Shown: positions 11,015 through 42,260 of the stretch, in pieces
How the letters are laid out: each line of letters begins with the position of its first letter
Numbering within the stretch: the stretch's first letter is position 1
DNA from: a bacterium
GTDB taxonomy: Bacteria; Patescibacteriota; Minisyncoccia; Phycocordibacterales; Phycocordibacteraceae
Length of the DNA: 64,000 nucleotides
NCBI GenBank assembly: GCA_027311385.1
Contig: DAICZA010000001.1
Span: 5,271-69,270 of the forward strand
Direction: 5' to 3'
The notes under the pieces: generated by a model
What the model was told of the DNA's origin: nothing
Databases searched by the model: none
What the model saw: only the letters and a program-made list of their open reading frames with translations
Position numbers and translations under genes: made by a program

Positions 11015-12769
11015 TTACCCCGAGCTCGCCGGGGCGCCTGTCTGGGTGCTCGGGAGGCCGCGGTCGGGCGGAACCTGGTAATAGTCAATCAGGAAGTGCA
11101 CGAGGTCAAGGAATGTGCTGTCCAGCGTCTCGGACGCATATTCCACGTGTTTCGGGTTATCTGTATAGAGCAGGATGATGAACCGCGGATTATACGAGGG
11201 GAAAAACCCGACAAACGAATGGAAAAAGCGGTCGGTGTAGTAACCGCCGCCGGGCTTGGTGAGCTGTGCGGTGCCGGTCTTCGCCGCAACCGACATCGTG
11301 GGAATAATCGCCCGACCGCCCTGCAGCACCGTATCAACCATATCGGTCATCATTTGCGTCGTCTCGTGCGCCGCTGTCGCTGAGAAGATACGCGTTGTCT
11401 GGCTCCAATCAAGCGTGCGGGTGATACCGGAATCCAGACGTACGGCGCTTGCGAGGTGCGGCTGTACCATCACGCCGCCGTTGGCGATGGCGCCGAGCGC
11501 GCGAATCATCTGCACCGGCGTCTCCGCGATGCCCTGCCCGAACGACGCCGTATCGTAATCAACCTGTTCCGGCTGGGAAAGATTAGAGAGGAGCGCGTGC
11601 CCCTCGTTCGGCAAGTCAATGCCCGTCTTCTGCCCGAAGAGTTCGGTGAAGTAGGCGCGGAATTTATCCTGCCCCAACTGCGTCGCGACCCACGAGGCGC
11701 CGACGTTGAGCGACTGAAGGATGATTTGCTCCATCGGGATGACGCCGCGCGCCTTTGAATCCCAATTGCAGATATGCGCATTGTTTACAGTGATGCAGCC
11801 CGTGTCGTCATAGGTGGTCTGCGGCGTGATGACACCCGCGTCCAGCGCCGAAGTCATCGTGAGCGGCTTCATAATGGAGCCGAATTCGTGCACGTGCTCC
11901 ACAAGCGGATTGCCGAGCAGGGTCGGGTCCACGTTCTGCAGGTTATTTTCGTCGTAGGTCGGATACGAGGTAAGCGCGATGATAGCACCGGTCGCGGGAT
12001 CCATAATGATGCCGCCCGAGTCGTCGCTTGAATACCGCTGATTCACCTTTGCGATATCGTCTTGGAGCCGCGTCTGGACCTCCGGCTCAATCGTGGTCAC
12101 GACGTCGCCTTCGTGTGCGTCCTTCGCGTTCACCAGCAGACTGCCCACGTTGGAGAAAAGCTCCGCAAAGAAATTTTTATACAGCGAGTCACCCGAGCGC
12201 GAGAGCACGCCGTCGTAGGTCGCTTCAAGCCCCGTTTGGCCGACCAGCGTATCGCCCGAACCGTAGGAGACGATGCCGATAGACTGCGCCGCGAGCGAGC
12301 CGCCCGGGTAGTAGCGCCAGCTTTCGCGCAGGACCTGGACGCCGGGAATGCCGAGTGCGGCAAGCGCCTGCCCGTCCGCGTCCGAGAGGTGGTGCGCGAC
12401 TTCCACGTATACCAGGTTCTTCTTCGCGGCGGCGGCGAGGAAAGCGTCGCGTGAGAGCGTTGATGAAGCGACGGCGCTTATCGCGCTATATGCCGCCGCG
12501 GGGTCGGTGATGGTTTGCGGATTGATGGCGACGAGAAATCCGGTCGCGAGCGTTGCCGCGGAAATGAGTGTGCCATCCTTGCGAGTGAAGTAGATGGACC
12601 CGCGGTCAAAGAGCCCGCTCCCGCCGGATGCGAATTGCCGGTCGGCTTTTTGCGCGTACTCGGCGCCGTGCACAATCTGGATGAAATAGAGGCGCAGGAG
12701 GGTCAAAAGCGCAGCAAGAACGATGAACGTGAGAACAAGGCGAATGCGTGAGCGAAACTGTGCACGCAT
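11015..12769 (-). CDS. ftsI: Class B penicillin-binding protein (FtsI-like); start codon rebuilt by element E1
   Basis: GSIMK (SxxK), SLN (SxN), KTGTAQ; position in mraZ-rsmH-ftsI-murF cluster. Confidence 0.85.
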   Translation of the reverse strand: MRAQFRSRIRLVLTFIVLAALLTLLRLYFIQIVHGAEYAQKADRQFASGGSGLFDRGSIYFTRKDGTLISAATLATGFLVAINPQTITDPAAAYSAISAVASSTLSRDAFLAAAAKKNLVYVEVAHHLSDADGQALAALGIPGVQVLRESWRYYPGGSLAAQSIGIVSYGSGDTLVGQTGLEATYDGVLSRSGDSLYKNFFAELFSNVGSLLVNAKDAHEGDVVTTIEPEVQTRLQDDIAKVNQRYSSDDSGGIIMDPATGAIIALTSYPTYDENNLQNVDPTLLGNPLVEHVHEFGSIMKPLTMTSALDAGVITPQTTYDDTGCITVNNAHICNWDSKARGVIPMEQIILQSLNVGASWVATQLGQDKFRAYFTELFGQKTGIDLPNEGHALLSNLSQPEQVDYDTASFGQGIAETPVQMIRALGAIANGGVMVQPHLASAVRLDSGITRTLDWSQTTRIFSATAAHETTQMMTDMVDTVLQGGRAIIPTMSVAAKTGTAQLTKPGGGYYTDRFFHSFVGFFPSYNPRFIILLYTDNPKHVEYASETLDSTFLDLVHFLIDYYQVPPDRGLPSTQTGAPASSG

Positions 12770-12885
12770 CCCGTTAGAAATAGAACACGAACGCACTTTT
12801 TGCGCCGTACTCTATCCAGCTAGTGTTTGTAATAACTGTCGTCATGATATTTTTTGGTGCGCTGTGTTCGTGATTTCTAACGGGA
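12769..12885 (-). mobile_element. Start-codon insertion element E1 (117 bp) at ftsI
   Basis: TIR TCCCGTTAGAAAT/ATTTCTAACGGGA; 4-bp duplication (+ strand CGCA at 12765-68 and 12886-89); original ATG at 12890. Confidence 0.85.
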
Positions 12886-12896
12886 CGCATGGCCCG

Positions 12897-13178
12897 TTAG
12901 CGCAGTGCGGTGACGCTCCTTGCGGGGACGAACAACTGAGCAGACGGCGCCGCGTACCCTTCGGCGAGATAATTCGTGTCCGTGACACTCGCCACGGAAG
13001 CGAGGTAGTGCGCCTCTAGCACGGCAACCGCAGCCTCGTCATTTTTAACCGATTGCGAGAATTCAACCGTGAGCGCCGCATAACTCATCACAACGGCGAT
13101 AAGACCGATGTAGACGACGAGCAGGACGCCGACGGCGCCGGAGGTAAGCGAAATAAATGAAAGACGAAGGTTATGCAT
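12897..13178 (-). CDS. Small bitopic membrane protein (FtsL-like by position)
   Basis: Single TM plus short helical tail between rsmH and ftsI. Confidence 0.6.
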   Translation of the reverse strand: MHNLRLSFISLTSGAVGVLLVVYIGLIAVVMSYAALTVEFSQSVKNDEAAVAVLEAHYLASVASVTDTNYLAEGYAAPSAQLFVPARSVTALR

Positions 13179-14208
13179 AAGAAAGAAGAGAAGTTAGCGT
13201 AGACGCCGATTCAGGGCGCGGTGAAGCCGTACCGCGCTCAAACACGCGCAATTTCGCGCTCCGCGCCCGGCGATTGGCGAGCAACTCCGCGCGCGACGGC
13301 GTGACGGGCTTTTTGGGATGAACGGTCCCCCACCCCGCCTCGGCCGCGTCGCGCAGGGTGTTCTTCACAATGCGGTCTTCAATGCTGTGGAACGAAATGA
13401 CTGCAAGTTTTCCGCCCGGCGCGAGCGCGGAAAAGGCGGCCGCAAGTCCTTCGCGGAGCGCACCGATTTCATCGTTGGCCGCGATACGGAGCGCCTGAAA
13501 TGTCTTCGTCGCCGGATGTATTTTCCGTTCGTGATACGAGCGCGGCGTGCCGGCGAGAACCGCGCGTACCAGGGCGTCGGTCGTGAGGATGCGTTCCTTG
13601 GCGCGCGCCGCCACAATGGCGCGCGCGATGGCGCGTGCGAAATGCTCCTCCCCGTACGTGAAGATGATATCCGCGAGGTCCGCTTCCGACGACATATTCA
13701 CAATGTCGGCCGCCGTCTCGCCGCCCTCGCCGTACGTCATCAGGAGCGGCTCGTCGTTCTGGAACGAGAAGCCGCGCGGCGTCGCGATTTGGTACCCGCT
13801 CCAACCGAGGTCAAACAGCATCTTGTTCACCTGGCCGATGCCGAGCCGCTCAAGAATGCGCGTGAGATTGCGGAAGTTGTCGTTGACCAGGTGCGCCACC
13901 GGGCGCTCGGGCCGGCGGTCGCGCGCGTAGGCCGCGCGCGCGCGGGCGACGGCGGCGGGGTCGGCGTCAATGCCGATAATCGTGCCGTCCTCGCCGAGCG
14001 CGGCGAGGAGTTCCGCGAAGTGCCCCGCTCCGCCCAAGGTCGCGTCCACGACCGTATCGCCCGGCGCGACGGAGAGCGCGGCGAGCACTTCCTGCATCAG
14101 CACCGGTTCGTGACGAGCCTCCACCCCGTTAGAGATATTCCTCTCGAGAGGTAGCAGGCGACGACGAGACGACGAACTTCCCTTTCCAAAATCTCTAACG
14201 GGGTCCAT
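13171..14208 (-). CDS. rsmH: 16S rRNA m4C1402 methyltransferase RsmH (N-terminus includes in-frame element E2)
   Basis: HEPVL, DATLGGAGH, FDLGWS, HPATKTFQALRIAAN, SFHSIEDRIVK, RARSAKLR. Confidence 0.95.
   Translation of the reverse strand: MDPVRDFGKGSSSSRRRLLPLERNISNGVEARHEPVLMQEVLAALSVAPGDTVVDATLGGAGHFAELLAALGEDGTIIGIDADPAAVARARAAYARDRRPERPVAHLVNDNFRNLTRILERLGIGQVNKMLFDLGWSGYQIATPRGFSFQNDEPLLMTYGEGGETAADIVNMSSEADLADIIFTYGEEHFARAIARAIVAARAKERILTTDALVRAVLAGTPRSYHERKIHPATKTFQALRIAANDEIGALREGLAAAFSALAPGGKLAVISFHSIEDRIVKNTLRDAAEAGWGTVHPKKPVTPSRAELLANRRARSAKLRVFERGTASPRPESASTLTSLLSYA
14124..14203 (-). mobile_element. Start-codon insertion element E2 (80 bp) at rsmH
   Basis: TIR CCCCGTTAGAGAT/ATCTCTAACGGGG; duplication TCCA at 14120-23 and 14204-07; rebuilds GTG; adds 84 nt in frame. 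Confidence 0.85.
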
Positions 14209-14209
14209 A

Positions 14210-14635
14210 TCAGTTGTCGCCGACGGTCTCGGCAAACGCGTCAGCATCGCGTTCAATCGCGGCCGTGTACTTCTTCCATGCCGCTTCGTTCCAGATTTCC
14301 ACCCGGTCGGCGACGCCGGCGATGACCGCCTTCTCCTTGATAGACGCGAACGACTTCAAGTGTTCGGGAATGAGCACGCGGCCCGTGCCGTCAACGTCGG
14401 CTTCCGATGAACCGGCAAGAAAAAGCCGCGCGAGGCCGCGGCGCGCCGCGTTCCCGTTTACCGCCGCCGCATACGCCGTCGCCTCCTTCTCCCACGCCTT
14501 GCGCGAGTAGACGTTGAGACAATGATCAAGGCCGCGCGTGACAACCACGACGCGGCCAAGATCCTTCCGGAATTTCGAAGGAATCGAAATCCTATTCTTA
14601 GAATCAAAAGTGTGTAGATATTCTCCGAGGAACAT
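14210..14635 (-). CDS. mraZ: Transcriptional regulator MraZ
   Basis: MFLGEYLHTFDSKNRISIPSKFR, DGTGRVLIP, GVADRVEIW. Confidence 0.95.
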   Translation of the reverse strand: MFLGEYLHTFDSKNRISIPSKFRKDLGRVVVVTRGLDHCLNVYSRKAWEKEATAYAAAVNGNAARRGLARLFLAGSSEADVDGTGRVLIPEHLKSFASIKEKAVIAGVADRVEIWNEAAWKKYTAAIERDADAFAETVGDN

Positions 14636-14666
14636 AGCGGAAGATGGCTGTGCGAGGAAGGAATAG

Positions 14667-14732
14667 GCCACCACTCCCATTTCCCACTCTGCTAACCATT
14701 TCTGGATTATATGCCACTTCCTCCCACTCCCC
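14667..14732 (-). promoter_or_regulatory. Putative MraZ operator (GTGG/TGGG repeats)
   Basis: Minus strand GAGTGGGAGGAAGTGG...GAGTGGGAAATGGGAGTGGTGG upstream of mraZ, matching known MraZ-box style. Confidence 0.65.
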
Positions 14733-14807
14733 TACGGGAGTTATCCACAGGCCAAAAAAGCAAAAGCCGGCGCGGCAGGAGCCGCGCCGGAGGAGGAGCG
14801 AACGCGT

Positions 14808-16292
14808 TTATCGCGGGCGCATCAGGGGAAAGATCTGCCCTTCACGTATGGAGACATCCTCAAAGAAGTCAAAGAGGCGTTCGGACACGCCGAAGCCGAA
14901 CGCCGGCGGCATACCGTATTCCAGTGCCTCTACGAAATCAGCATCCGGCATCTGTGCCTCCTCATCGCCCGCATCACGTAACTGCTGCTGTCGCGCGAAG
15001 CGCTCGGCTTGGTCTACCGGATCGTTAAGCTCGCTGAATCCTTTCCCTATCTCTGAACCGGCAATCATCACCTGGAAACGTTCCACGACGCGCGAGTCCT
15101 TCGCGCTCTTCTTCGCAAGCGGCTCCATATAGACCGGCACATTCACGAGGAACCCGGGGCCGGCAATCTCTTTACGAATTATTTTCCAAAGGCTATCAAC
15201 TGCCCGCGCGATGTTATATTCTGTGTGTTCGTATTTGATTCCAGCATTTTCACATATTTCAATCAGGTCACCGAGCGTTACTCTCTTCTCAGTTTTTTTA
15301 TACATCTCGGTAAGCGGATTCAACCCGAAACGATCCTCTACGAGCTTACAAAAGTCATACATCTCCCACTCTTTGCCCAAATCAACCTCAAATCCCTTGA
15401 TAGAAAAAACTCGCGTACCATACACCATGTCGGCGATGGTGCGGTACAGATCGGCAATCATCTCCATCCCCGCCTCGTAATCCTTAAACGCCTCGTAGAA
15501 TTCCACCTGCGTGTAGTCCTGCGCGTGTTCCGCCGACATTCCCTCATTGCGGAAGATACGACCGATTTCAAACGTCTTCGGCAGACCAGCGACCATCAGC
15601 CGCTTCTGCCAGAGCTCGCCGGCGCTGATGCGCAGGTACACATCCATATCGAGCGCGTTGTGGTGCGTCACAAACGGGCGCGCCTCGGCGCCGCCGGTTG
15701 TCGTCTCAAGCACGGGCGTCTCCACTTCCACGAAATCCCGCGCGAGGAGATACGCGCGAATGGTATTCCAAAATCGTGAACGCCGTTTGATGCGCTGTGC
15801 CAAATCTTTCGTGAGGAGGATATCCAGATAGCGCTTTCGGAACCGTTCGTCCTCGTCCTTGATGCCGAACCATTCATCGGGAAGCGGACGGAGTGACTTG
15901 GCGAGCATGCGCCACCCAGTCACGTCCAAGGACGGCATCCCGCGCTTGGTGGTAAATGCCATGCCGGAAACCTCAACGACATCGCCGGTATCAACGGCGG
16001 CAGTGAAAAGGTCGTACGATTCATCGCCGAGTTTGTCGCGCTGGACGAAGCACTGCCCTTTCGTCCCGTCAAAAATATCAATGAACAGCGAGCCACCATG
16101 CTCGCGGATGGAGAGCACGCGTCCGGCAAGCATTATCTGCTCGCTATTCTTTTCGAGCACAGCGTGGTTCTCGAGGAACTGCTCAACGGAATGCGTGCGC
16201 GAAGTGCGCGCCGGATAAGCGTCCATCCCCGCCTCTTTGAGACGGGCTATTTTCGCAAGCCGATCGGCGCGCACGGTCTCAAGCAAAGCCAT
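14808..16292 (-). CDS. lysS: Lysine--tRNA ligase (class II)
   Basis: VETPVL...GGAEARPFVTHHNALD, FRNEG, ALEYGMPPAFGFG. Confidence 0.96.
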   Translation of the reverse strand: MALLETVRADRLAKIARLKEAGMDAYPARTSRTHSVEQFLENHAVLEKNSEQIMLAGRVLSIREHGGSLFIDIFDGTKGQCFVQRDKLGDESYDLFTAAVDTGDVVEVSGMAFTTKRGMPSLDVTGWRMLAKSLRPLPDEWFGIKDEDERFRKRYLDILLTKDLAQRIKRRSRFWNTIRAYLLARDFVEVETPVLETTTGGAEARPFVTHHNALDMDVYLRISAGELWQKRLMVAGLPKTFEIGRIFRNEGMSAEHAQDYTQVEFYEAFKDYEAGMEMIADLYRTIADMVYGTRVFSIKGFEVDLGKEWEMYDFCKLVEDRFGLNPLTEMYKKTEKRVTLGDLIEICENAGIKYEHTEYNIARAVDSLWKIIRKEIAGPGFLVNVPVYMEPLAKKSAKDSRVVERFQVMIAGSEIGKGFSELNDPVDQAERFARQQQLRDAGDEEAQMPDADFVEALEYGMPPAFGFGVSERLFDFFEDVSIREGQIFPLMRPR

Positions 16293-16316
16293 ACGCTCTA
16301 CTATACCATCCGTTCG

Positions 16317-16790
16317 TCAGGCCACCTTCTCTATCGTATAGGTCTGCTTGCCCGACGGGGTCTCAAAGGTGAACATATCGCCCTTCTTCTTGCCCATCAG
16401 CGCGGCGCCCAAGGGCGAGACGTGCGAGAGCTTCTTCACGCGCATATCGGCCTCCTCGCTCCCGACGATGGTGTACTCGTGCACCTCGTCGCTCCCCTCC
16501 CGCTTGATGGAAACGACCGAATTGAAACTGACCTCGTTCTTCTTCTTGCCGTCGGTGAGAATCTTCGTATTTTTCACGAGGTCTTCCAGCTTCTTGATGC
16601 GCTCCTCGGTCGCAGCCTGCAAATCGCGCGCTTCCTGATACTCGGCGTTCTCCGAGAGGTCGCCGAGCGACCGGGCGTATTCCAAGTTCTTGGCAATCTC
16701 GGTGCGGCGCACCGTTTTCAGGTGCTCCAATTCTTTAATCATCTCGTCAAATTTTTCTTGCGAGACGAACGTGTCCTGTGTATCGGTCAT
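16317..16790 (-). CDS. greA: Transcription elongation factor GreA
   Basis: GDLSENAEYQEAR, SPLGAALMGK. Confidence 0.96.
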   Translation of the reverse strand: MTDTQDTFVSQEKFDEMIKELEHLKTVRRTEIAKNLEYARSLGDLSENAEYQEARDLQAATEERIKKLEDLVKNTKILTDGKKKNEVSFNSVVSIKREGSDEVHEYTIVGSEEADMRVKKLSHVSPLGAALMGKKKGDMFTFETPSGKQTYTIEKVA

Positions 16791-16825
16791 ATCTGGTGTG
16801 GTGAGGGCATTGTACGCGAGCGCCG

Positions 16826-18523
16826 TTATTGCGCAAGCGCCGTGGTCGTCGCGGTACCTCCCACATACGGCGAGTTCTCGGCATACAGTAAATCAAAAAG
16901 TTCGCGCATCACGTTTACGGACTGTTCGCCGGCGCCCGAGGGCCCGCGCTCCAGCACGACCGCAAACGCATACTGCGGATGGTCGTAGGGGAAGAACCCT
17001 TCTACCCACGAATTGTCGTACTGGTTGTGCACGCCCGTCTGTGCGGTGCCGGTCTTCGCCGCGACGGCAAGATACGGCAGATTGATGGCGGTCGCGAGCG
17101 CGCTCGTGACGCCGTCGCGCATACCCGCGCGCACCACCGCGAGCATTGCGGGATTGACCGACACGGTGGTATGCACGGGAATGGCGCCCGCGAGCAGGGT
17201 CGGCGTGAACAGGTCCCCGCCGTTGGCGATGGCCGCGGTCGCGCGCGCCATTTGTATCGGCGTCACCTGCATCCCGTACTGCCCGATAGCGGTAAAGTAC
17301 GTATCGCCGAGATACCACGGTTCGTTGAAGACCTGCTTCTTCCACGCCGGCGTCGGGACGACACCGCTCGCTTCTCCCGCGAGGTTGATGCCGGTCGTCG
17401 TGCCAAATCCGAACTGCTGGTACCAGTAATCAAGCCGGTCAATGCCGAGCCCCTTCTGAGAGCCGAACCCGCCGCCGACCGTGTAGAAAAAGACATCCGA
17501 CGACCAGGCGATCGCCTTCTCTGCGTTCACCGGCCCGAGCGCCTTCCATCCTTTGTAAAGAAATTCCTTGCCCGGGTGGTACGGGTCCGGGATGGAGAGC
17601 GAGCCCGTGTCGTTGATAATCGTCTGCGGCGTGATGATGCCGTCGGTGAGCGCACCGGAAGCGACAAACGGCTTCACAATGGAACCCGGCGCGTACACGC
17701 CCTGCACGGCATGGTCAATAAACGGACGCCCGATGTTTGTGTTGTATCCGGCAATAACGCTCGGCGGACCGCCGCTCGCCATCACGCCCGAATCGTAGCT
17801 CGGATACGAGACGAGCGCGCGCACGGCGCCGCTGTGCGTATCCAGAATGACGCCGCCGCCGGCAATGAATCCTTGCGTGCTCGCCACGTGCGCGAGTGCC
17901 TGCGCGAACCGCTGTTCAAGGTTTGCATCAAGCGAGAGTCGGAGCGTCTGACCTTCTTTTGCGGGGACGATGGTTCCTTCCGAGCGAACCTTGCCAAGCG
18001 CATCGGTCTCGGTCAACAGTTGCCCGTTCTTCCCCGCCAAAAGCCCGTCATACTCCGCCTCAAGGCCGGTCACGCCGGTCTCGGTCGTGTCGTAGTAGAC
18101 CCCGCTTGCGTCTTTCTTCGGATACGAAACGTAACCGATGATGGCACTTGCTGCGGGAACCGGATAGGCGCGCAGAACGGTGCCGTCCGCCGTCTGGACG
18201 TTTTCGGCGAGTACGACGCCGTGCATATCGGTGATGACCCCGCGCGGCGCGAAGAGCGTCGTAACGGCGAGGCTGTTGTGCGCGCTCTCGGCCGCAAACG
18301 CGGCGCCGTCGGTTACCTCCAGATTCCACGAACGGGAAACGAGCACGAGCATAAGAAGCGTGAGAACGGCGACGAGCGAAACAAAAGTTCTCTGCGACAG
18401 CGGCTTCTCAATCCGCCCTTCAAAACGGGCGCGGTCAAAAGCGGGCGCATTTGATGCGTCAAGGAATATTTCGTCGGGGGCTATCTCCGGATCGCGCCGC
18501 CGCTTCAGCCGCCATCGTTTCAT
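16826..18523 (-). CDS. mrdA: Penicillin-binding protein 2 (MrdA-like)
   Basis: PGSIVK, SSDVFFY, KTGTAQ; downstream of mreBC. Confidence 0.85.
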   Translation of the reverse strand: MKRWRLKRRRDPEIAPDEIFLDASNAPAFDRARFEGRIEKPLSQRTFVSLVAVLTLLMLVLVSRSWNLEVTDGAAFAAESAHNSLAVTTLFAPRGVITDMHGVVLAENVQTADGTVLRAYPVPAASAIIGYVSYPKKDASGVYYDTTETGVTGLEAEYDGLLAGKNGQLLTETDALGKVRSEGTIVPAKEGQTLRLSLDANLEQRFAQALAHVASTQGFIAGGGVILDTHSGAVRALVSYPSYDSGVMASGGPPSVIAGYNTNIGRPFIDHAVQGVYAPGSIVKPFVASGALTDGIITPQTIINDTGSLSIPDPYHPGKEFLYKGWKALGPVNAEKAIAWSSDVFFYTVGGGFGSQKGLGIDRLDYWYQQFGFGTTTGINLAGEASGVVPTPAWKKQVFNEPWYLGDTYFTAIGQYGMQVTPIQMARATAAIANGGDLFTPTLLAGAIPVHTTVSVNPAMLAVVRAGMRDGVTSALATAINLPYLAVAAKTGTAQTGVHNQYDNSWVEGFFPYDHPQYAFAVVLERGPSGAGEQSVNVMRELFDLLYAENSPYVGGTATTTALAQ

Positions 18524-18774
18524 CCCCTCATAGTACCCGCCCGGAGCCGGCTTCGCACGAAAAACGCGGCGGCCGTCACCAGCGCCCCGCAGAGCGTCGC
18601 AAGCGGCAGTGTATGGGCCTGCGGCGCGTAGTAGAGTGTATCGGCGAACAAGCCCGCCGCAAGCGGTACCAAGGGTTCGGTAAACGCACACACCAGCGCG
18701 AGAAGCGCCGCAAACGGCCACGGGAAGAAGACGACGGAAATAAGCGTCAGAACCGTCAGTGCTCCGCGCATCAT
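18520..18774 (-). CDS. Small membrane protein (MreD position)
   Basis: Hydrophobic 84-aa ORF, ATGA-coupled to mreC and to mrdA. Confidence 0.6.
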   Translation of the reverse strand: MMRGALTVLTLISVVFFPWPFAALLALVCAFTEPLVPLAAGLFADTLYYAPQAHTLPLATLCGALVTAAAFFVRSRLRAGTMRG

Positions 18775-20637: not shown

Positions 20638-20640
20638 ACC

Positions 20641-21887: not shown

Positions 21888-21888
<1 letters not shown>

Positions 21889-21989
21889 CCCGTTAGAAGT
21901 CTTACTCATAGTCAAAAGTTATTACCGCGAATGTTTGCGTCGAAAGACCCTCGTTAGGTACTTGCCCTGGCCGCGGACTTCTAACGGGA
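21888..21989 (-). mobile_element. Start-codon insertion element E3 (102 bp) at proS
   Basis: TIR TCCCGTTAGAAGT/ACTTCTAACGGGA; duplication CTCA at 21884-87 and 21990-93; original ATG at 21994. Confidence 0.85.
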
Positions 21990-27287: not shown

Positions 27288-27405
27288 TCCCGTTAGAGAT
27301 AGCGGGCACGGCTCGCAGGGTCGATTACCTGCCGTTATTACCAATGATAACCTCGATAGGTGTTCGCGGCGTACTTTATACGCTCGTACCCTATCTCTAA
27401 CGGGA
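27288..27405 (+). mobile_element. Start-codon insertion element E4 (118 bp) at def
   Basis: TIR TCCCGTTAGAGATAG/CTATCTCTAACGGGA; duplication TGAA at 27284-87 and 27406-09; original ATG at 27283. Confidence 0.88.
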
Positions 27406-28752: not shown

Positions 28753-29111
28753 CGGTCGCGGCGGAGCATATTCTTAATTGCGGAGCTGCCGCGCTTCCAG
28801 AGCCGGCGCGTGCGCCCGCGCGAGCGCCGTATCTCCGCCTCCAGCTGGCTCCTGACCCGGTCGGCGGCGCTCTCGGGAGTCGGCTTCACCGCCTCGGCAT
28901 GGAATACCGTGTCATTGATGACGAGCCGTGCGACGAGACGGCACGGCTCCGACGAGCGCCCCTCCGGCGGCGCTTCCTCCACTTCTATTTCAAGCAATGC
29001 ATTCTCCTTCTCGTCGCCGAGCAGGCGCAGCGGGGCCGCGAGCTTCTCCTCTACCAATGCTTCCGTCTCAGGCGAGAGGTGATACTTCGTTGCTTTGATA
29101 GTGATGTTCAT
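28749..29111 (-). CDS. HPF/RaiA family ribosome-associated protein; start codon rebuilt by E5
   Basis: MNITIKATKYHLSPE..LVEEKL...AADRVRSQLEAEIRR pattern. Confidence 0.75.
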   Translation of the reverse strand: MNITIKATKYHLSPETEALVEEKLAAPLRLLGDEKENALLEIEVEEAPPEGRSSEPCRLVARLVINDTVFHAEAVKPTPESAADRVRSQLEAEIRRSRGRTRRLWKRGSSAIKNMLRRDR

Positions 29112-29227
29112 CCCGTTAGAGGTAGGAAATCGGAGATTTCCGTACGATTATTGATAATGGTTTTCACCCACTGTCACATAGTTTACCACAAGACCTTAAT
29201 TACCCAAGGTTTTGACCTCTAACGGGA
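29111..29227 (-). mobile_element. Start-codon insertion element E5 (117 bp) at the HPF/RaiA gene
   Basis: TIR TCCCGTTAGAGGT/ACCTCTAACGGGA; duplication TTCA at 29107-10 and 29228-31. Confidence 0.85.
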
Positions 29228-29242: not shown

Positions 29243-29461
29243 TCAGCTACTAATGCTTACCATCTTAGCCCGAGAATGATGTCCTGTCAGTATGCGCACT
29301 GCGCCAACCGGCTTCCCGACGCGGAGCGCGACGAGCTCGCGCACGCGGGTGTTCGCGCGGTTCTGCGCTGCCGGCTCGCGGACCGCTATGAGGAGGGTCT
29401 CGCCTTTTTCTTCCACCCTCTCGCGCTTCGCGCCCGGTGTGACGAAGATTTTTATAAACAT
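29243..29461 (-). CDS. DUF167 (YggU-like) protein; start codon rebuilt by E6
   Basis: IFVTPGAK...VREPAAQNRAN...ILTGHHSRAK. Confidence 0.85.
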   Translation of the reverse strand: MFIKIFVTPGAKRERVEEKGETLLIAVREPAAQNRANTRVRELVALRVGKPVGAVRILTGHHSRAKMVSISS

Positions 29462-29577
29462 CCCGTTAGAGACAGGGTACGGAATCTCCCTGTACGGCCG
29501 TCTTATTCGGCTTCGCACTCGACCTTATGAATATATGCATGGTGTCCATATTACCGTACTCGCTGTCTCTAACGGGA
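29461..29577 (-). mobile_element. Start-codon insertion element E6 (117 bp) at the DUF167 gene
   Basis: TIR TCCCGTTAGAGACAG/CTGTCTCTAACGGGA; duplication AACA at 29457-60 and 29578-81; original ATG (29582) overlaps the glutaredoxin TAA. Confidence 0.88.
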
Positions 29578-30880: not shown

Positions 30881-30953
30881 CTCGAGAACATCGTGCAAGT
30901 TCATCGTCTGCAGTTCCATTCCGCGGTAGCTCAGTGGTAGAGCGGCTCGCTGT

Positions 30954-31518
30954 GGTTAAAGTTCAGAACCCGATGGTATACTGCACAGAGTATGCCAAAA
31001 GAAAAAAGAACTTATGCCGATCGTGCCGAGTATTTGCGTAAGGCCGTTTCCGAACGTCGTAAGAAACTTCGTGAAATGGCGCGCGAATACCGGGGCGGGA
31101 AATGTATGATTTGTGGTTACAAACGGTATTCGGGAGCACTTGATTTCCACCATCGAGACCCCACGAAGAAAGACTTTGGTCTTTCTGTGAAGGGACTTAC
31201 GCGATCGTGGGAGAAAATCAAAATAGAGATTGAGAAATGTGCTCTCGTGTGCGCAAACTGTCATCGCGAAATACATGCAGGCATTACGCAGCTTCCTACA
31301 GAAATGTAGACTGAAAACGAGGTGAATTCGGGGAAACCCTAACAGAGGAAATGCTGTGGGCAATCCCGAGCCAAGTCCCGAGAGTAATCAAGGGAAAGGT
31401 GTAGAGACTATCCCGCAAGGGAGTAGACCGAAAGGTCGAAGCGCCTCGCATCCGACATTTACGAAATGTAAAAAGGATGATGATATAGTCCATCCCGCCA
31501 GTAACGGCGGAACAAATG
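30954..31518 (+). ncRNA. Group I self-splicing intron in the tRNA-Asn anticodon
   Basis: 5' exon ends in U and intron ends in G; core motifs GAATTCGGGGAAA (P), AATCCCGAGC (Q), GTAGAGACTA (R), GATATAGTCC (S); candidate IGS TTACGCAGC at 31284-92. Confidence 0.9.
30992..31309 (+). CDS. Intron-encoded HNH homing endonuclease
   Basis: CMICGY...ALDFHHRDP...KCALVCANCHREIH. Confidence 0.88.
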   Translation: MPKEKRTYADRAEYLRKAVSERRKKLREMAREYRGGKCMICGYKRYSGALDFHHRDPTKKDFGLSVKGLTRSWEKIKIEIEKCALVCANCHREIHAGITQLPTEM

Positions 31519-31980
31519 TAACGAGTTGGTCGTAGGTTCGAATCCTACCCGCGGAGCTAGAAACAGTTAGGCCCTAATGCGAAAGCATCGGGGTCTTACT
31601 GTTTCTCTTCGTCGGTAGGATTCGAAGGCCGGAGGCGGACGCGCCGAGGCGGGGTCGCGCAAAATCTCAGCAGAGATTTATGCGCGACCGAGTCCTGCTC
31701 CCGGAGCCGAGTGAGCAAAACAAAAGAGCCCTCTTCAGGCTCTTTTGTTTTCGAGCGAGGCTCCGCGGGTATGCCTACATACCCGCGGAGCAAGGTAGGG
31801 ATGGAAGTGTGATAGCCTTATGGCATACAACGTGGCGCGAGTGGGCAGGTCATGACTATCGTGCTCGTAGCCATTGCCCTAGCCGGTATTGTCGGGGTGT
31901 GTGCGGCCAGCGCGGAGGGCTCCCGGGAGAGCAACCGGGCACTTGACGAGACTTGCACAAAATTGGATTATTATGGAATC

Positions 31981-33606: not shown

Positions 33607-33675
33607 TGGTACCTCTTGGCATATACATATAGTTTTGATACGGCTTTTTTATTTTCACCCGGGTTCCCTGGCGCG

Positions 33676-35179: not shown

Positions 35180-35238
35180 AGGACCGGCGTCAAAAGCCCC
35201 CTCCGCTGTAGTGCGGCGGGGGCTTTTTGTTTATACCG

Positions 35239-36294: not shown

Positions 36295-36300
36295 ATGAGC

Positions 36301-36894
36301 TCAAGCCGAGGGCATAAAGAGCAGGCTGACGAGTGCGAAGAGTATCGCGCTGTAGAGGCCCCACGTCGCCGCGACGAGGAAAAATGTTGGCCCCCCGAGA
36401 ACGTAGATGAACAAGAACAGCAGCGCGAACGACTGGAGCACCATTTTCACCTTCCCCGTCGCGTTCGCCCCCGCGCTCCGGCCGTATGCGTACCGGTACA
36501 CGGCCCGCGCGCTAAGGACAACCTCAAGGAAGATAATGAGCGCCGCCACGCCGATGCCTATGTACCGCGTGACGAGGATGAGCGCAGTAGAGCCGATGAG
36601 CAGTTTGTCGGCCAAGGGGTCGGCAATCTTCCCCCAGCGGGTTATCTGGCCGCGCGTGCGCGCCATCGCCCCGTCAAGCGCGTCGGTGAGCGCGGCGGCG
36701 GCGAACACCGCCGCGCCCCACGCATAACTCTGCACCAAGAGGAGCGTGATGACGATAGGGACGGACACGAACCGCACGACCGTCACCGAGTTCGGCGAGA
36801 CCGAACGCGGAATGAGCCGCAGTATCGTGGCGCGCAAGAAGTCGTCGGCAATCTTCAGATGCGGCCCTGCTTGCTGTCTCGTGTGTCCGCTCAT
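36301..36894 (-). CDS. CDP-alcohol phosphatidyltransferase
   Basis: PNSVTVVR, DALDGAMAR...GKIADPLADK. Confidence 0.9.
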   Translation of the reverse strand: MSGHTRQQAGPHLKIADDFLRATILRLIPRSVSPNSVTVVRFVSVPIVITLLLVQSYAWGAAVFAAAALTDALDGAMARTRGQITRWGKIADPLADKLLIGSTALILVTRYIGIGVAALIIFLEVVLSARAVYRYAYGRSAGANATGKVKMVLQSFALLFLFIYVLGGPTFFLVAATWGLYSAILFALVSLLFMPSA

Positions 36895-37010
36895 AGCTGT
36901 CTCTCTGTTATACACCATCGGGAAGCGTTCCCTCGCCTTTCTGCGCGCAAACTCGTGCACAAACAACCGGACACATTGCGATAATGAATAGTTCGTGGTA
37001 CTATCAAGGG

Positions 37011-37247
37011 ATGAAATCGCCCGATGTAGACCGACTGCGGAGCGAGAAGCCGATTTCTTTTTCAGACTTCTTGCAGTCATACAACGAGAATCTCCCCGCG
37101 GCGTTCCCGCGCGCCTCGCTCGCGCTCCTGCGCGAGTTCAAGAAAGCGAACGCGTCGCTCTTTAAGGAAGGCAACCTGTGGTCGCTTGACCAGCACCGCA
37201 AAAAAGTGATGGACTGGCTCACGTCACGGCAGCTGAAACAGCTCTGA
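37011..37247 (+). CDS. Hypothetical protein
   Basis: 78-aa ORF with TACTAT -10 six nt before ATG. Confidence 0.6.
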   Translation: MKSPDVDRLRSEKPISFSDFLQSYNENLPAAFPRASLALLREFKKANASLFKEGNLWSLDQHRKKVMDWLTSRQLKQL

Positions 37248-37290
37248 GGATACCGCCTGCGGCACACCGCGGCCGTGCTACGCTGGAGGT

Positions 37291-38310
37291 ATGGATACCC
37301 ATCGGGTAGAAAGCAATTCCCTCCTCGCGCTCTTTCTCGGCGCCTCCATTCTTCTCTTTTTCGTCTTCGCGCCGTTCTTCGCGGCTCTGTCGCTCGCCGC
37401 AGTCTTTGCGATACTCCTCCACGCGCCGTACGAGAAACTGGTCCGCCTTTTCGGCGGATGGAAGAGCGCGGCCGCCCTGCTCACCGTCGGCGTGATGCTT
37501 ATCTTCTTTATCGTACCGCTCTTCTTCCTGGGAACGCAGATCGCCCAGGAAGCGCACGGGCTCTACACGGGAATGAACGGAAACGGAGCGCAGTACGTGC
37601 AAACGCTCCAGACGGCGGCTGAGCATCCGCTCCAGCAGATATTCCCCGGCTTCGTATTCAACTTGAATGCGTACATCGGGAACACGCTTGTCTTCATCTC
37701 GGATAATCTCGGGTCGCTCATCTACCAGACGCTGTACGTGCTCTTTGAAACATTCCTGATGCTCTTCGCTCTCTTCTTCTTCCTGCGCGACGGACGCGGC
37801 TTCCTCGCGGCATTCGCGCGGATAAGCCCGTTCGGGAAAGATACGACAAACGACATTCTGGACAAGATGTACCGGACCATCCAGGCGGTGATGCAGGCGA
37901 CGCTGTTCGTGGCGCTTGCCCGCTGGATATGTCTCGGCATCGCGTTCACGCTCTTCGGCATACCGAATGCGCTCCTCTGGAGCAGTGTCGGCGCCCTTCT
38001 CGGAATGATTCCCGGCGTCGGGACGCCCGTCGCCCTCGTCGGCGCGGTCGCGTATCTGTACCTCCTCGGCAATCTTCCCGCCGCGGTTCTCCTCGCACTG
38101 CTTGGCATCGTCATCGTCGTGCTTGTGGACAACTTGCTCACGTCGTACTTCTTCAGCAGGGGACTCCAGGTATCGCCGGTGTTTATCCTGTTCTCGCTCC
38201 TCGGCGGCATCGTCTTCTTCGGGCCGGTCGGGTTCGTACTCGGGCCGCTCATTCTTTCAGTATTCCTCTCCGTCATCCGCGTCTACGGCCGCGAAGAAAA
38301 TAGGGCCTGA
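37291..38310 (+). CDS. AI-2E family transporter
   Basis: Multi-TM; LFFFLRDG, IPGVG, LLGGIVFFGPVGFVLGP. Confidence 0.9.
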   Translation: MDTHRVESNSLLALFLGASILLFFVFAPFFAALSLAAVFAILLHAPYEKLVRLFGGWKSAAALLTVGVMLIFFIVPLFFLGTQIAQEAHGLYTGMNGNGAQYVQTLQTAAEHPLQQIFPGFVFNLNAYIGNTLVFISDNLGSLIYQTLYVLFETFLMLFALFFFLRDGRGFLAAFARISPFGKDTTNDILDKMYRTIQAVMQATLFVALARWICLGIAFTLFGIPNALLWSSVGALLGMIPGVGTPVALVGAVAYLYLLGNLPAAVLLALLGIVIVVLVDNLLTSYFFSRGLQVSPVFILFSLLGGIVFFGPVGFVLGPLILSVFLSVIRVYGREENRA

Positions 38311-38371
38311 TGGCCCGCAGAAAACGCGGCCGCCCCTCTCGGGGCGGCCGCGTTTCTTTCTCTCTTATTCC

Positions 38372-38602
38372 CTATTGCGTCCAACCGCTCATCATCCCGT
38401 AGCCGTAGCCACCGTAGCCGTTTCCATAACTTCCGTGGAGCATCCCGCGCAGTTCGCCGAACTGCACGCCGCACCAGAAGATGAAGATGGCGACCAGAAT
38501 CTTGATGGCAATATGCGCCCAGTGATGGCGTCCGTGCCAGCAGTGGCCGCAGTGGCCGCACCCTTCCCGCCCCTCTCTCATTTCTTTTGTCTCCGTATCC
38601 AT
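38372..38602 (-). CDS. Small His/Gly-rich membrane protein
   Basis: CGHCGHCWHG, TM helix, GYGMM tail. Confidence 0.55.
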   Translation of the reverse strand: MDTETKEMREGREGCGHCGHCWHGRHHWAHIAIKILVAIFIFWCGVQFGELRGMLHGSYGNGYGGYGYGMMSGWTQ

Positions 38603-38901
38603 ATGCTTTGTATTACAGAATATAGGGTCAGTATACACGATGAACGCCTATCAAATAAAGCTCCAACTGTCCATCCTTAAGGAGGATGACGATGCTGTCT
38701 GGGTATGTATGCTCTCCCGCTAAAGGTTACGCCGGTACTGGAAGACGTGGGGAGTATTGAACCCCCGCTACTGCCCCCGCCAGACGAGGAGAATAAACAG
38801 TACACTCCATCCGAAAACGGTACGCATAACTTTCTTTTATCGTAGCATAAGGTGGATGTCATTTTCTCTTTCTCCCGCGCAACGGTATACTGCCGACCAC
38901 C

Positions 38902-39765
38902 ATGACCCCGCGTGCCCGCCCTCCCCTTGTCCTGACTATTTCCGCCCTCGCCGTGCTGGCGGGAATGCTCCTTGTGCTTCAAGGAAGAACGGCGCCTGCC
39001 GTCCGACCGTCTCCAGGCAACGAAACACTCTATGCCGAACTCCCAATACACGCGACGCAAACGGTCCCTCCCGCGACGGCGTCCACAACGGAGGTTGCCC
39101 TGCCGATTTTGGTCTACCACATCGTCCGGCCGAGCTACCCGAGCGACAGCGCGGCCGTGCGGGCGCTCGCCCAGACGCCGGAAGTCTTTGACGCACAGAT
39201 GCAGTACCTGAAAGACGCCGGCTACCACGTCGTATCGTTTGGCGCGCTTGAGAACTATTTCCGCGACGGCACCCCGCTCCCTGCTAAACCGGTCATCATT
39301 TCGTTTGACGACGGCTGGGGCGACCAGTTCAACTACGCCTTCCCCATTCTGGAGAAGTACCAGTACACGGCGACCTTCTTCGTCTTCACAAACCCGATAG
39401 GCAAGGGCGGCTTTATGACCTGGGACGACTTGCGGACGCTCGTGAAGGCCGGTATGACCATCGGCAGCCATTCGCGCTCGCATCCATACCTGACGAAAAT
39501 CACCGACCCCGCCGTCCTCTGGAACGAAATAGACGGAAGCAAGAAGCTCCTGGAACAGAACCTCGGCATCACGGTCAACGAATTCGCCTATCCGTTCGGG
39601 CAGTACAATGCGACGACCACGGCGCTCGTGCGGCAGGCCGGCTACCGCTCCGCCCGCGGCGACTTCTACACCGGCAAACAGTTCTCCAACCGGCTCTATA
39701 TGCTAAGCGCGCTGAATGCGCCTACGACGCTGGCGCAGTTTGAGCGGCGGTTCCCTGCTCAATGA
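38902..39765 (+). CDS. Polysaccharide deacetylase (CE4)
   Basis: PILVYH, SFDDG, GSHSRSH, FAYPFG. Confidence 0.92.
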   Translation: MTPRARPPLVLTISALAVLAGMLLVLQGRTAPAVRPSPGNETLYAELPIHATQTVPPATASTTEVALPILVYHIVRPSYPSDSAAVRALAQTPEVFDAQMQYLKDAGYHVVSFGALENYFRDGTPLPAKPVIISFDDGWGDQFNYAFPILEKYQYTATFFVFTNPIGKGGFMTWDDLRTLVKAGMTIGSHSRSHPYLTKITDPAVLWNEIDGSKKLLEQNLGITVNEFAYPFGQYNATTTALVRQAGYRSARGDFYTGKQFSNRLYMLSALNAPTTLAQFERRFPAQ

Positions 39766-40414
39766 GTTCCCAATCGCGCGGGAAAAGATGCCGGGCGATG
39801 TTGAATATGCCGTACGCCATAAACGGCGCCGCAAACACGTCAATGGAATAATGGATGTGCGCAAGCAACACCGCCACGCCGAAGACGAACGACAGCACGA
39901 AGAAGATGATGCGCGCCAGCCGTTCCCGCCAGAAAATAAGCGCCATCAGAAACGGCAAGGCGGTGTGTCCAGAAAAGAAGAAGCCGGTCTGGAAATTGAG
40001 ATAGAGATAGATACCGTCAAAGATGCCCGCACCCGGGTTGATATTGCCCGGGTAAATGCCGACGTGCGTCAGCGAGACGAACAAGGCGCGAATGGCGATG
40101 AAAAGCGCGACCGCCTTGAGACTGAAGAGGACGTGGCGCGGGCGCAGGAGCACGAAGAGCGACCCCGCGAGGATGCTGATGAGCGCGCCTTCCACAATGA
40201 TGAAATTCAGGTTCACCACCGGCAAATTATCCAGGAGCAAGTCTCCCACGTAGGTAGAGGTCGGCCGGAGCGAATACGCGAGCTCATACAAATTGGCGAA
40301 ATGCTCGGCGACAAACGCGCCGGCAAGCAGGAGGAGAGCGCCGAGGAGCGAGTACCGGTACGCCGGACCGAATATATCTCGCAGGGTGAAAGCATCAGTG
40401 TGTCGTGTCTCCAT
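39722..40414 (-). CDS. PAP2-related membrane protein (sphingomyelin-synthase-like)
   Basis: FFSGHT and HIHYSIDV motifs. Confidence 0.8.
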   Translation of the reverse strand: METRHTDAFTLRDIFGPAYRYSLLGALLLLAGAFVAEHFANLYELAYSLRPTSTYVGDLLLDNLPVVNLNFIIVEGALISILAGSLFVLLRPRHVLFSLKAVALFIAIRALFVSLTHVGIYPGNINPGAGIFDGIYLYLNFQTGFFFSGHTALPFLMALIFWRERLARIIFFVLSFVFGVAVLLAHIHYSIDVFAAPFMAYGIFNIARHLFPRDWELIEQGTAAQTAPAS

Positions 40415-40593
40415 AGCGGCCGATGATAGTACGAAGTGTAGCAGACCGGCGGACGCGAACGGCCTGTTGACAAGAAACTGCAGGTCTGCTATTCTGTGTG
40501 CATCAACCAGCGCTGGATCCAAAGAAGTGGGATCGAGCTTCTCTCTTCGGCTACTGATTTGATACCTTAGTCACACACACTATCTACTGCAGT

Positions 40594-40803
40594 ATGCAAA
40601 ACGGTACAGTCATCAAGAAGAACCAGAACGGCTTCGGCTTCATCAAAGTTGATGGAGCCGCGGATGGCGCGAAGGACCTTTTCTTCCACTCTAACGAGCT
40701 CCAGAACATTTCGTTTGACGAGCTCCAGGAGGGAGACAAAGTCTCGTTCACCATCGGCGACAGCCCGAAGGGCCCGAACGCCCTCGGCGTCAGCAAGGTC
40801 TAA
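40594..40803 (+). CDS. Cold-shock protein
   Basis: GFGFI (RNP1), LFFH (RNP2), KGPNA; TTGACA...TATTCT promoter and long 5' UTR. Confidence 0.93.
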   Translation: MQNGTVIKKNQNGFGFIKVDGAADGAKDLFFHSNELQNISFDELQEGDKVSFTIGDSPKGPNALGVSKV

Positions 40804-40818
40804 GCAATTAGATTGAGC

Positions 40819-40850
40819 AGAAATCGCCCCGCGAAAGCGGGGCGATTTCT
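40819..40850. terminator. Intrinsic terminator hairpin
   Basis: AGAAATCGCCCCGC-GAAA-GCGGGGCGATTTCT. Confidence 0.75.
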
Positions 40851-41253
40851 ATGTGGTGTAGTGCTTCACGCACCGGCAGCCGTAGGGCTTGATATGCTCG
40901 TCAAAATATTCCTCTCCGTAATCGTAGGTGAACTCTTCCCCCGCTTTGATGCTTTTTATCGCGTCAATGAAAATGCGCCCGCGCTCTATTTCCGGTTCGC
41001 AGTTGGGTGTGCAGGAGTGATTGATGTACCGCGCGATGTTTGAGCGCGCCGCGCCGTCAATGGTCTTGCGGGAGTTCACCTCAAAGAGATACTTGCTCCG
41101 GCTGGTGTACTCCTCGGCCGTGGTGAGCGTCCGGCCGGCGTATTCAATGATGCGCTCCCCTTTTTTGTACGGGCGTGTCGCGAAGAGGCCGAGTCCGGCA
41201 CTCGCTCTCCCCACCCGAACACCGTCGGGGTATGTTAGTTTCTTTCTCGCCAT
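40849..41253 (-). CDS. SET-domain protein
   Basis: GLGLFA, RYINHSCTPN, GEEFTYDYG, post-SET CRC. Confidence 0.92.
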   Translation of the reverse strand: MARKKLTYPDGVRVGRASAGLGLFATRPYKKGERIIEYAGRTLTTAEEYTSRSKYLFEVNSRKTIDGAARSNIARYINHSCTPNCEPEIERGRIFIDAIKSIKAGEEFTYDYGEEYFDEHIKPYGCRCVKHYTT

Positions 41254-41289
41254 ACCGTTTCGTCTCTCCGGTATAGCATTTCTCCGGCG

Positions 41290-41979
41290 CTATTTCCACT
41301 CAATGAGCTTCCCCGCTTTGAGTTCCATAGCATCGGCGCGGCGCACGTAGCGCCAGTTCCCTTTCGGCACGAGGAAATAATGCTTGCGTTCGGCGAGCGC
41401 GTCGGCGACGTTCCAGAGATCCGTCTCGGCGGTGAGCCACGCCGCGCCGATGCGGTCTGCCCCCGACGGGGCGCCGATGCGGTCTGCCCCCGACGGGGCG
41501 CCGATGCGGCGCATATCGAGCGGCTTGGAGTAGCACTCCAGTGTCTTCTCCCGCGTCTCGTTCATAAACCACTCGTGGAAATACGAGAGCGCGAGCTCGC
41601 GCGGCGTCCGGTACACGGGGTCGCGGAAGCGGAGCACGGCGTGATTCGTCTTGCTGATGGCGCCATAGCGCCCGCCGCGCGCATACAGCGCCACGACGTG
41701 GTCCACGTCGCCCTTCCCCATCCGCGACGACAGATTCATGATAATCGGCGGCTCGCCGTGGACCCAGAGCGCGGCGGCGGCAAGCAGAGCGCCCTCAATG
41801 CAGTGCGCCTTCTTCTCGCGCAGGACGCGGCGCGGGGACATATGCGTATCACCGCTCTTCTCCAGATTGAACGGGAGCGTGTCCAGGAAATCCTGAATCT
41901 TCGCCGGCGTAGAGAGCCGCGAGAGCGTCTCATACTCACCGCGATTGAATCCGGATTTGGCGCGAGTGAGATGCTTCAT
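41290..41979 (-). CDS. Conserved hypothetical protein (transglutaminase-like Cys/His); start codon rebuilt by E7
   Basis: AHCIEGALLAAAAL, DHVVALY, GAISKTNH, RDPVYRT.RELALSYFHEW. Confidence 0.75.
   Translation of the reverse strand: MKHLTRAKSGFNRGEYETLSRLSTPAKIQDFLDTLPFNLEKSGDTHMSPRRVLREKKAHCIEGALLAAAALWVHGEPPIIMNLSSRMGKGDVDHVVALYARGGRYGAISKTNHAVLRFRDPVYRTPRELALSYFHEWFMNETREKTLECYSKPLDMRRIGAPSGADRIGAPSGADRIGAAWLTAETDLWNVADALAERKHYFLVPKGNWRYVRRADAMELKAGKLIEWK
41444..41509. repeat. 27-bp in-frame tandem repeat (2.4 copies)
   Basis: GCGCCGATGCGGTCTGCCCCCGACGGG x2 + 12 nt, encoding RIGAPSGAD repeats. Confidence 0.9.
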
Positions 41980-42260
41980 CCCGTTAGAGATAGGAAACGC
42001 TTCAGTCTGTTTTTTAGATATCGTTTCCCCATCCCGGTTTTTAGATACGTCTCCCGAGCCGTTGCGTCGTTTAGATTGCGGCATGCTTCGTAATATACCA
42101 GTTCGTAGGGGCGGTGGCGTTTCGTCCACCCGCGTGGGGCTGTCTGGTGCTGGCTGAAGCGTTTCCGTAAATCATTCGTGACACCGGTGTACCAATAATC
42201 ACTTGTGAGGCTTCTGATGACGTACACATAGCACATGTTGTCATCTCTAACGGGATTCAT
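41976..42260 (-). CDS. GIY-YIG nuclease (94 aa) encoded across element E7
   Basis: YVYVIRS...WYTGVTNDLRKRFSQH...TKRHRPYELVYYE...ARETYLKTGMG; starts at host ATG, TGA overlaps rebuilt ATG. Confidence 0.9.
   Translation of the reverse strand: MNPVRDDNMCYVYVIRSLTSDYWYTGVTNDLRKRFSQHQTAPRGWTKRHRPYELVYYEACRNLNDATARETYLKTGMGKRYLKNRLKRFLSLTG
41979..42255 (-). mobile_element. Start-codon insertion element E7 (277 bp) carrying a GIY-YIG gene
   Basis: TIR TCCCGTTAGAGAT/ATCTCTAACGGGA; duplication TTCA at 41975-78 and 42256-59. Confidence 0.9.

Follow-up and report, generated by a model that had tools for sequence, protein, structure and literature searches.

A family of hairpin-ended mobile elements in Patescibacteriota that rebuild host start codons, with a GIY-YIG nuclease as candidate mobiliser

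Bacterial MITEs (miniature transposable elements with inverted repeats), such as Correia, RUP and ERIC, are short and gene-less, have inverted ends and a fixed target duplication, and occur in many copies beside genes. The Ssn nucleases are single-domain GIY-YIG proteins of about 94 aa, flanked by their own dispersed hairpin repeats (Chenal et al., 2025, PMC11893778); SsnA binds the stem of a DNA hairpin and cuts a few bases upstream whatever the loop, and its authors hypothesised that NTS-ssnA-NTS is a domesticated mobile element (PMC11893778). Mycobacterial MIRUs are short repeats, apparently mobile, that land on start codons, and the coupling of their internal open reading frame (ORF) with the host gene at -4 nt limits the harm; the idea of the start codon as a safe harbour is thus already in print (PMC12548453). 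Here we describe elements that resemble each of these in part, found in a 64,000-nt stretch of a Patescibacteriota genome (assembly GCA_027311385.1, contig DAICZA010000001.1, positions 5,271 to 69,270; hereafter the window, in whose coordinates positions are given). The source genome, G000, is a draft assembly of 638 kb in 47 contigs, and the window lies on the contig that we call C11. Insertions were observed in front of many genes unrelated to one another, each time with 4 bp of the form Y-N-N-R precisely duplicated, and it is close to certain that these are real mobile DNA elements.

The window holds seven copies, at the positions and with the perfect 4-bp duplications and A|TGNN...R|TGNN anatomy that a sequence-only reading had given. 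Gene-less copies occupy, on the minus strand, the starts of ftsI (12769..12885, 117 bp, subfamily A, duplication TGCG), rsmH (14124..14203, 80 bp, with C...G ends that rebuild GTG), proS (21888..21989, 102 bp), HPF (29111..29227, 117 bp, subfamily B) and DUF167 (29461..29577, 117 bp), and on the plus strand the start of def (27288..27405, 118 bp). Copy 7 (41979..42255, minus strand), full-length at 277 bp and putatively autonomous, lies at the start of a conserved gene of 229 aa, with the duplication TGAA. Pfam matched the six gene names and assigned no family to the copy-7 host, and the seven target genes have no function in common. In G000 insertion is almost always one base into a start codon; since the element ends in A or G, the duplicated TG that follows it again reads as ATG or GTG. 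An Rfam scan of 12000-43000 returned a group I intron as its sole match and none for the elements, and a search of titles and abstracts in the open-licence literature gave no description of this family, which the sequence-only reading had likewise not recognised; a full-text search for the end motifs gave only unrelated titles among the matches listed. A core match at 9446 lies inside a tRNA-Glu gene (9436-9508) and was rejected as an element. An 8-bp match to the end core at 12893-12900, overlapping the ftsL stop just upstream of the captured ftsI ATG, has no counterpart in relatives and may be chance or the footprint of an earlier copy.

Repeats of this kind could also arise as an assembly artefact, given a draft genome of 47 contigs, but the chance of this is negligible: contigs of run X1, possibly the source sample, read across the def and DUF167 copies with no difference and across the left junction of copy 7, and the family recurs in many independent genomes, which excludes an artefact.

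The sequence-only reading gave the shared ends as 10 bp; they are present in all seven copies, but in these and in a wider set the inverted end is 13 bp long, YCCCGTTAGA-RRY. Exact half-sites number 68 in the 638-kb genome, compared to a mean of 4.6 (maximum 43) for 200 permuted 9-mers, a surplus indicating that the repeats are not due to chance. Among 274 distinct elements, selected by the exact 9-bp core only, positions 1, 11, 12 and 13 of the two ends are complementary in 260, 259, 254 and 243 elements, where 133, 130, 152 and 127 are expected under independence, while position 14 has no pairing surplus (94 vs 91 expected). The ends must pair as an exact 13-bp stem. In subfamily A the stem resumes for 7 bp after a 4-nt bulge, and two pairs of this inner stem co-vary (19 and 17, each vs 10.2 expected, n=20); the 60-65-bp class forms two inner hairpins on folding. 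A second stem inside the nuclease gene was considered and rejected, as the columns are mostly invariant and co-variation is weak (53 vs 41 and 73 vs 66 expected, n=77).

The interiors had been described as largely unrelated. They do fall into several unrelated classes, but the ftsI copy and the HPF copy each have siblings elsewhere in the genome (z of the alignments up to 10.6 and 12.1), which makes two subfamilies, whose ungapped interior identity is 33% in subfamily A and 46% in subfamily B. In anatomy the family is like bacterial MITEs: six of the seven copies are short (80-118 bp), non-coding and bounded by the 13-bp ends, a fixed 4-bp duplication was found (186 of 331 elements) and all seven loci have empty alleles. 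The interiors are too divergent for homogeneous MITE copies. Unlike MITEs with DDE parents, the elements diverge inside at fixed length, co-vary at four end positions and have a GIY-YIG gene as the sole coding partner found. A capture of the interiors from elsewhere in the genome was rejected, as BLAST matched only sibling copies apart from one 15-nt match. Nested copies were seen at L315 and at L440-L489 (G144, G171), together with minimal 28-bp hairpin copies in BIME-like tandem arrays at TAAA/TTTA, and at L168, L304, L309 and L317 copies of 29-62 bp are crossed by long open frames and are possibly in-frame intragenic insertions.

The MITE-like character and the safe harbour proposed from the sequence are supported, but that reading missed the gene in copy 7. 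An ORF of 94 aa (41976..42260, minus strand; an internal Met at 42236 gives the 86-aa P0001) encodes a GIY-YIG domain as its only domain (PF01541, E 4e-16). Its frame takes the captured host ATG as start, passes both inverted repeats and closes at a TGA that comes from the duplication and overlaps the rebuilt ATG. Catalytic-type residues Y, Y, G, R, H and E are kept, and dN/dS is 0.06-0.17 against the ten closest relatives. The best sequence and fold matches are UPF0213 (BH0048, PDB 1zg2) and Slx1, both weak (E 0.003 and 0.012); the structure model is modest (pLDDT 66, from a single sequence, with fold matches at E > 0.001), and NCBIfam gave nothing above cut-off. The literature searched describes no mobile-element role for UPF0213/Slx1-like GIY-YIG proteins, and the accessible part of one paper mentions GIY-YIG genes only as transferred from Patescibacteria (PMC12455944).

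The nuclease clade is always inside these ends. Among the matches listed, all 89 homologues of at least 58% identity lie between both ends, compared to 1 of 20 below that level; since the last query residues are encoded by the right end, the 89/89 is biased for that end, though not for the left. The set of 109 loci joins 30 from the genus search and at least 79 from a genome scan, and includes the element's own locus and at least two duplicate pairs. The nearest named relatives of the nuclease are Patescibacteria, and the records include several groups of these as well as Omnitrophota, Planctomycetota and Desulfobacteraceae. The 90 nuclease copies among these matches are mostly 273-282 bp long, in 79 the stop follows directly after the end, and 60 have a rebuilt start with a long ORF. 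The clade occurs in 8 of 14 element-rich genomes vs 3 of 107 others, a test that treats kin as independent and in which each full-length copy itself adds two half-sites. No other cargo gene was found in G000, in loci from G005, G010 and five more genomes, in six distant genomes or in 78 viral loci, a screen that covered subsets of loci and left some half-sites unpaired. Full-length nuclease elements at L037 and L038 lie at the starts of proteins resembling peptide deformylase; the G000 def gene has a gene-less copy. At L012, L013, L015, L017 and L029, GIY-YIG genes of 44-48% identity are bracketed by other 12-22-bp inverted repeats, which suggests sister element families, and distant GIY-YIG genes at L016, L018, L019, L020, L024 and L027 end, by eye, right at the start of an apparent tRNA gene.

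The resemblance to Ssn extends to the single-domain GIY-YIG protein of about 94 aa, the dispersed multi-copy hairpin repeats, the irrelevance of loop content and the catalytic spacing, with Y, Y and E at intervals of 11 and 46 here compared to 11 and 47 in SsnA (Y6/Y17/E64). On visual comparison, the NTS, with TCA and then a TCCCG...CGGGA-type stem, resembles one strand of the element ends. The differences lie in the architecture: the SRMs of Ssn are separate hairpins of 20-50 nt on each side of the gene, whereas here both ends form one stem with the gene as its loop, and none of 38 elements matches the published degenerate SRM pattern. A plasmid search on the Ssn clade question gave three weak matches. 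The accessible portions of the Ssn work describe no target duplications, empty sites or start-codon targeting (PMC11893778).

Empty alleles in relatives, as the sequence-only reading would have them, are present at all seven sites. For five hosts we compared the 30 best-scoring orthologous loci of the same genus (116 genomes with a match for rsmH and ftsI, 114 for def and HPF, 66 for the copy-7 host, from whose set one locus was dropped as its contig begins inside the gene); the sets for proS and DUF167 (for the latter L400-L409) were smaller. The site is empty, with a single start, in 28 of 29 relatives at rsmH, in 26 of 29 at ftsI (filled in G005, G050 and G054), in 28 of 29 at def, in 22 of 23 scorable relatives at HPF, in four of five at proS (G050 has a related 102-bp copy) and in 10/10 at DUF167; at the copy-7 host, 27 of 28 scorable relatives have no element end. 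At def, the site in G023 and the rebuilt one in G000 are alike except for a few bases. One and the same ATG can hold different subfamilies across genomes, as at rsmH (different in-frame copies of 104 bp in G017 and 65 bp in G010), def (a copy of another subfamily in G115), HPF (a different 81-bp copy in G108) and the copy-7 host (a gene-less copy in G059). A clade of the four genomes filled at ftsI, a group named before the tree, is rejected (p-AU 3e-63): among them, G050 has the empty G095 as its sister and G000 the empty G092, so that either insertion took place more than once or the element was lost precisely. Nuclease genes that share 85-90% identity with P0001 lie at several unrelated genes, indicating recent movement. 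The distribution is patchy: by hand count, at least 10 half-sites are present in 14 genomes among 121 of the same genus and in 20 among 300 others of the phylum. A viral collection yielded six paired gene-less copies among 78 half-site loci; four matches at full-length spacing were dismissed as chance. On viral contigs L511, L522, L523 and L551, short gene-less start-codon copies have, immediately within the right end, a GGAG(G) that resembles a Shine-Dalgarno motif.

The same loci bear on the view that the repeats are regulatory leaders or recombination-control sites kept by the host, domesticated in the manner of Ssn/NTS and no longer mobile. SsnA restricts incoming DNA at its repeats (PMC11893778), and the G000 copies are old, to judge by the 33% identity of subfamily A interiors; some copies (ftsI, proS) are shared between species, and inner stems co-vary. 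We consider this view improbable, as the element is missing at every site in most relatives, sister species differ, the target genes share no function and the closely similar nuclease genes point to recent movement. It may fit single old copies without excluding mobility.

The choice of target was examined throughout G000, where 31 of 38 candidates have a perfect 4-bp duplication. Twenty-seven of these lie one base into an ATG, where 2.6% would be expected from random positions, so that the enrichment at start codons claimed from the window holds genome-wide; two lie at GTG and two at other 4-mers. Called starts account for 24 of the 27 ATG targets (two are intergenic and one genic), compared to 15.8% of non-genic ATGs (p 1e-16). 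The gene caller was crude (589 genes) and under-calls genes, and as it covers just 79% of the genome, the intergenic ATG count and the start contrast are inflated. Of the three non-start ATG targets, one has an ORF that runs off the contig edge, one an ORF of 31 codons and one opens an ORF of 444 codons. Among 331 elements the duplication is 4 bp in 186, 3 bp in 12 and 5 bp in seven, and the duplicated 4-mer is Y-N-N-R in 183 of the 186. Where flanks are unequal and the ends perfect, Y-N-N-R is found on both sides in 66 of 97 elements and on each single side in 78, compared to 15-29 in offset controls; this may be due to a core that the element carries, to deletions mediated by the ends or to neighbouring copies that have recombined.

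These counts have to be weighed against pure survivorship, in which insertion occurs at any R|YNNR and only gene-sparing copies persist. The Y-N-N-R rule does extend to all 46 of 46 non-TG targets, and ATGNR starts are favoured (25 of 27 targets vs 55% of starts). In other lineages copies are found in tandem arrays and at TAAA/TTTA: in an unselected metagenome sample of at least 131 elements, among the matches listed, many C...G-ended copies lie at TAAA/TTTA, and of the 123 whose flanks suffice, 60 rebuild the start of an ORF of at least 80 codons. Only part of the family, then, targets start codons, and in G000 this behaviour is dominant. Yet G000 offers 3783 non-genic non-start ATGs (a count inflated by the gene caller) compared to 709 start-region ATGs, and still 24 of 27 targets are called starts, which makes survivorship alone unlikely. 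Sequence preference and loss of intragenic insertions account for only part of the selection of start codons among all ATGs. Targeting of leaderless transcription starts, in the form of an open promoter complex, was not supported: 15 of 27 targets have a -10-like box 4-9 nt upstream, compared to 200 of 508 other starts (p 0.11). One subfamily-A type has TGCG at four of five distinct host genes, compared to one of 12 for other types, a hand count that is suggestive of target memory only.

How the host gene may be spared can be followed in the seven copies. Genes of G000 are often apparently leaderless, with -10-like boxes peaking 6 nt before the ATG, so that insertion parts the native signals from the coding start. 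We propose that the host gene stays expressed because a ribosome that has begun at the old ATG continues in frame, as might happen at rsmH, or finishes a mini-ORF at -4 or +4 nt relative to the rebuilt start and re-initiates there. The rsmH copy is in frame with the captured ATG, and read-through would add 28 residues. In the def copy a mini-ORF of 41 codons ends in a TGA that overlaps the rebuilt ATG (ATGA), and copy 7 likewise overlaps; the ftsI and DUF167 copies have mini-ORFs of 38 codons from the captured ATG with the stop 4 nt before the rebuilt ATG, and the proS copy one of 30 codons with the stop 13 nt before it. The coupling modes are therefore an overlap at -4 in two copies, +4 in two, in frame in one, +13 in one and unbridged in one. 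Translational coupling is reported to be best from -4 to +3 nt and to fade by about +40 (PMC12548453). Of 37 copies in the +4 class, 25 have an open frame from the captured ATG, vs 31 of 185 control frames, although these copies are related; in subfamily A the counts are 10 of 12 vs 1 of 24 control frames. Several results weigh against bridging: the mini-ORF of the HPF copy has 10 codons and its stop falls 88 nt short of the rebuilt ATG, leaving no bridge; bridging also fails in the ftsI-site copies of G005 (116 bp) and G050 (115 bp); in G000 alone, reverse-strand frames are also often open (17/42 vs 10/14); and the control frames contain stops that stem from conserved sub-terminal motifs. The peptide of the mini-ORF has no codon-position pattern (variability 0.60/0.63/0.61), so that selection on it was rejected and there is at most selection against stops. 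Taken together, mini-ORFs quite probably bridge the old and the rebuilt start by translation. Insertion at a start codon with an internal ORF coupled at -4 nt is shared with MIRUs; the non-mycobacterial host, the 13-bp inverted ends, the three coupling modes (-4, +4 and in frame) and the candidate mobiliser set the present family apart. We know of no mobiliser of MIRUs.

As to how the elements move, we think it probable that an autonomous GIY-YIG element is accompanied by MITE-like derivatives and that its nuclease mobilises the family. The full-length unit of about 277 bp, which carries only the single-domain GIY-YIG nuclease, would lack translation signals of its own and use the captured start codon to enter and the duplicated TGA to stop; copies of 28-130 bp would be non-autonomous relatives moved in trans. 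The nuclease would recognise the stem formed on one DNA strand, with the variable interior as its loop, and cut at the R|YNNR junctions of ends and target, after which host repair would seal the joint. We put this single-strand hairpin chemistry forward tentatively, at somewhat less than even chances. In view of the Y-N-N-R surplus at unequal flanks, the element may carry its 4-mer along as a core for recombination, which would permit precise excision. On balance we lean towards the 277-bp unit being a self-contained transposon of an undescribed class, with a 94-residue GIY-YIG protein and without a DDE, HUH or recombinase domain, and lean just as far towards that class being one in which the nuclease mobilises hairpin-ended DNA, finds translation starts and borrows the start and stop codons of the host.

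A number of observations weigh against this proposal. Among the matches listed, the duplication is perfect in no more than 55 of the 90 copies with the nuclease and the captured start is in frame in only 41, and the clade is missing from six of the 14 element-rich draft genomes. A search with the nuclease-element profile (nhmmer) gave no match in the gene-less interiors, so that these were rejected as relics of the nuclease gene formed by simple deletion. Excised or empty forms were not found in the contigs of four runs of one study over one 16-kb stretch, where contigs drop rare variants. GIY-YIG proteins are, as far as we know, hydrolytic nucleases with no known strand-transfer step, and we know of no prokaryotic insertion sequence (IS) family with a GIY-YIG nuclease as its transposase. 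If autonomous, the 277-bp unit would to our knowledge be below the size of any known autonomous prokaryotic element.

An alternative is that the elements are ordinary MITEs with the GIY-YIG gene as a passenger, and that their transposase comes from another locus, either as a DDE enzyme with a Y-N-N-R target or as an HUH enzyme of the Y1/RAYT type. DDE transposons typically combine inverted ends and a 4-bp duplication of fixed length, and hairpin substrates are typical of HUH enzymes; five Y1-like ORFs and a single integrase gene of the rve type are present in G000, unpaired half-sites are left in the examined loci, and short-read drafts lose IS elements. However, a pair of element ends was found at none of the five Y1 loci and none of the three DDE/rve loci. 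DDE families are sparse in five element-rich draft genomes (PF01609 in 0/5, PF13358 in 0/5, PF12762 in 1/5 and PF00665 in 2/5), and Y1 transposases, in 11 of 14 element-rich vs 56 of 107 other genomes, do not track the element significantly. No parent IS with these ends and a DDE or HUH transposase was found, a search limited to four DDE families in five draft genomes, with unpaired half-sites remaining. Moreover, a passenger need not be one gene under purifying selection across several phyla, and the free co-variation of four end positions suits a paired stem better than a sequence read by a protein. This explanation therefore seems rather unlikely. With REP/REPIN and RAYT, and with IS200/IS605, the family shares hairpin-forming repeats, tandem arrays in some genomes and a small partner enzyme; unlike REP/RAYT, it has no ends at the five Y1 loci of G000 and makes a symmetric 4-bp duplication. 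One of the five Y1/RAYT-like transposase ORFs lies in the window at 56425-57153 (plus strand; PF01797, at cut-off), without these ends.

Two other features of the window were noted. The 229-aa host gene of copy 7 has an in-frame tandem duplication of a 27-bp unit at ~41450-41505 (minus strand) that is missing from most relatives. The group I intron match lies at 31222-31511 (plus strand; RF00028, 79 bits), and contig joints at ~30935-31519 suggest an interrupted RNA gene.

There is a fair chance that the family is a new class of transposon. The Ssn paper raised GIY-YIG mobility as a hypothesis; the present family supplies footprints of it, in the form of duplications, empty alleles and dispersal, and the 277-bp copy is a unit with which such mobility can be tested. 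If a 94-aa nuclease does recognise a 13-bp stem with any loop, it could serve as a compact DNA tool. For annotation, the element causes systematic errors in start codons of Patescibacteria. For the organism itself, with 27 ATG targets among about 590 called genes, about one gene start in twenty is occupied, including those of essential genes, a case of selfish DNA persisting in a streamlined genome.

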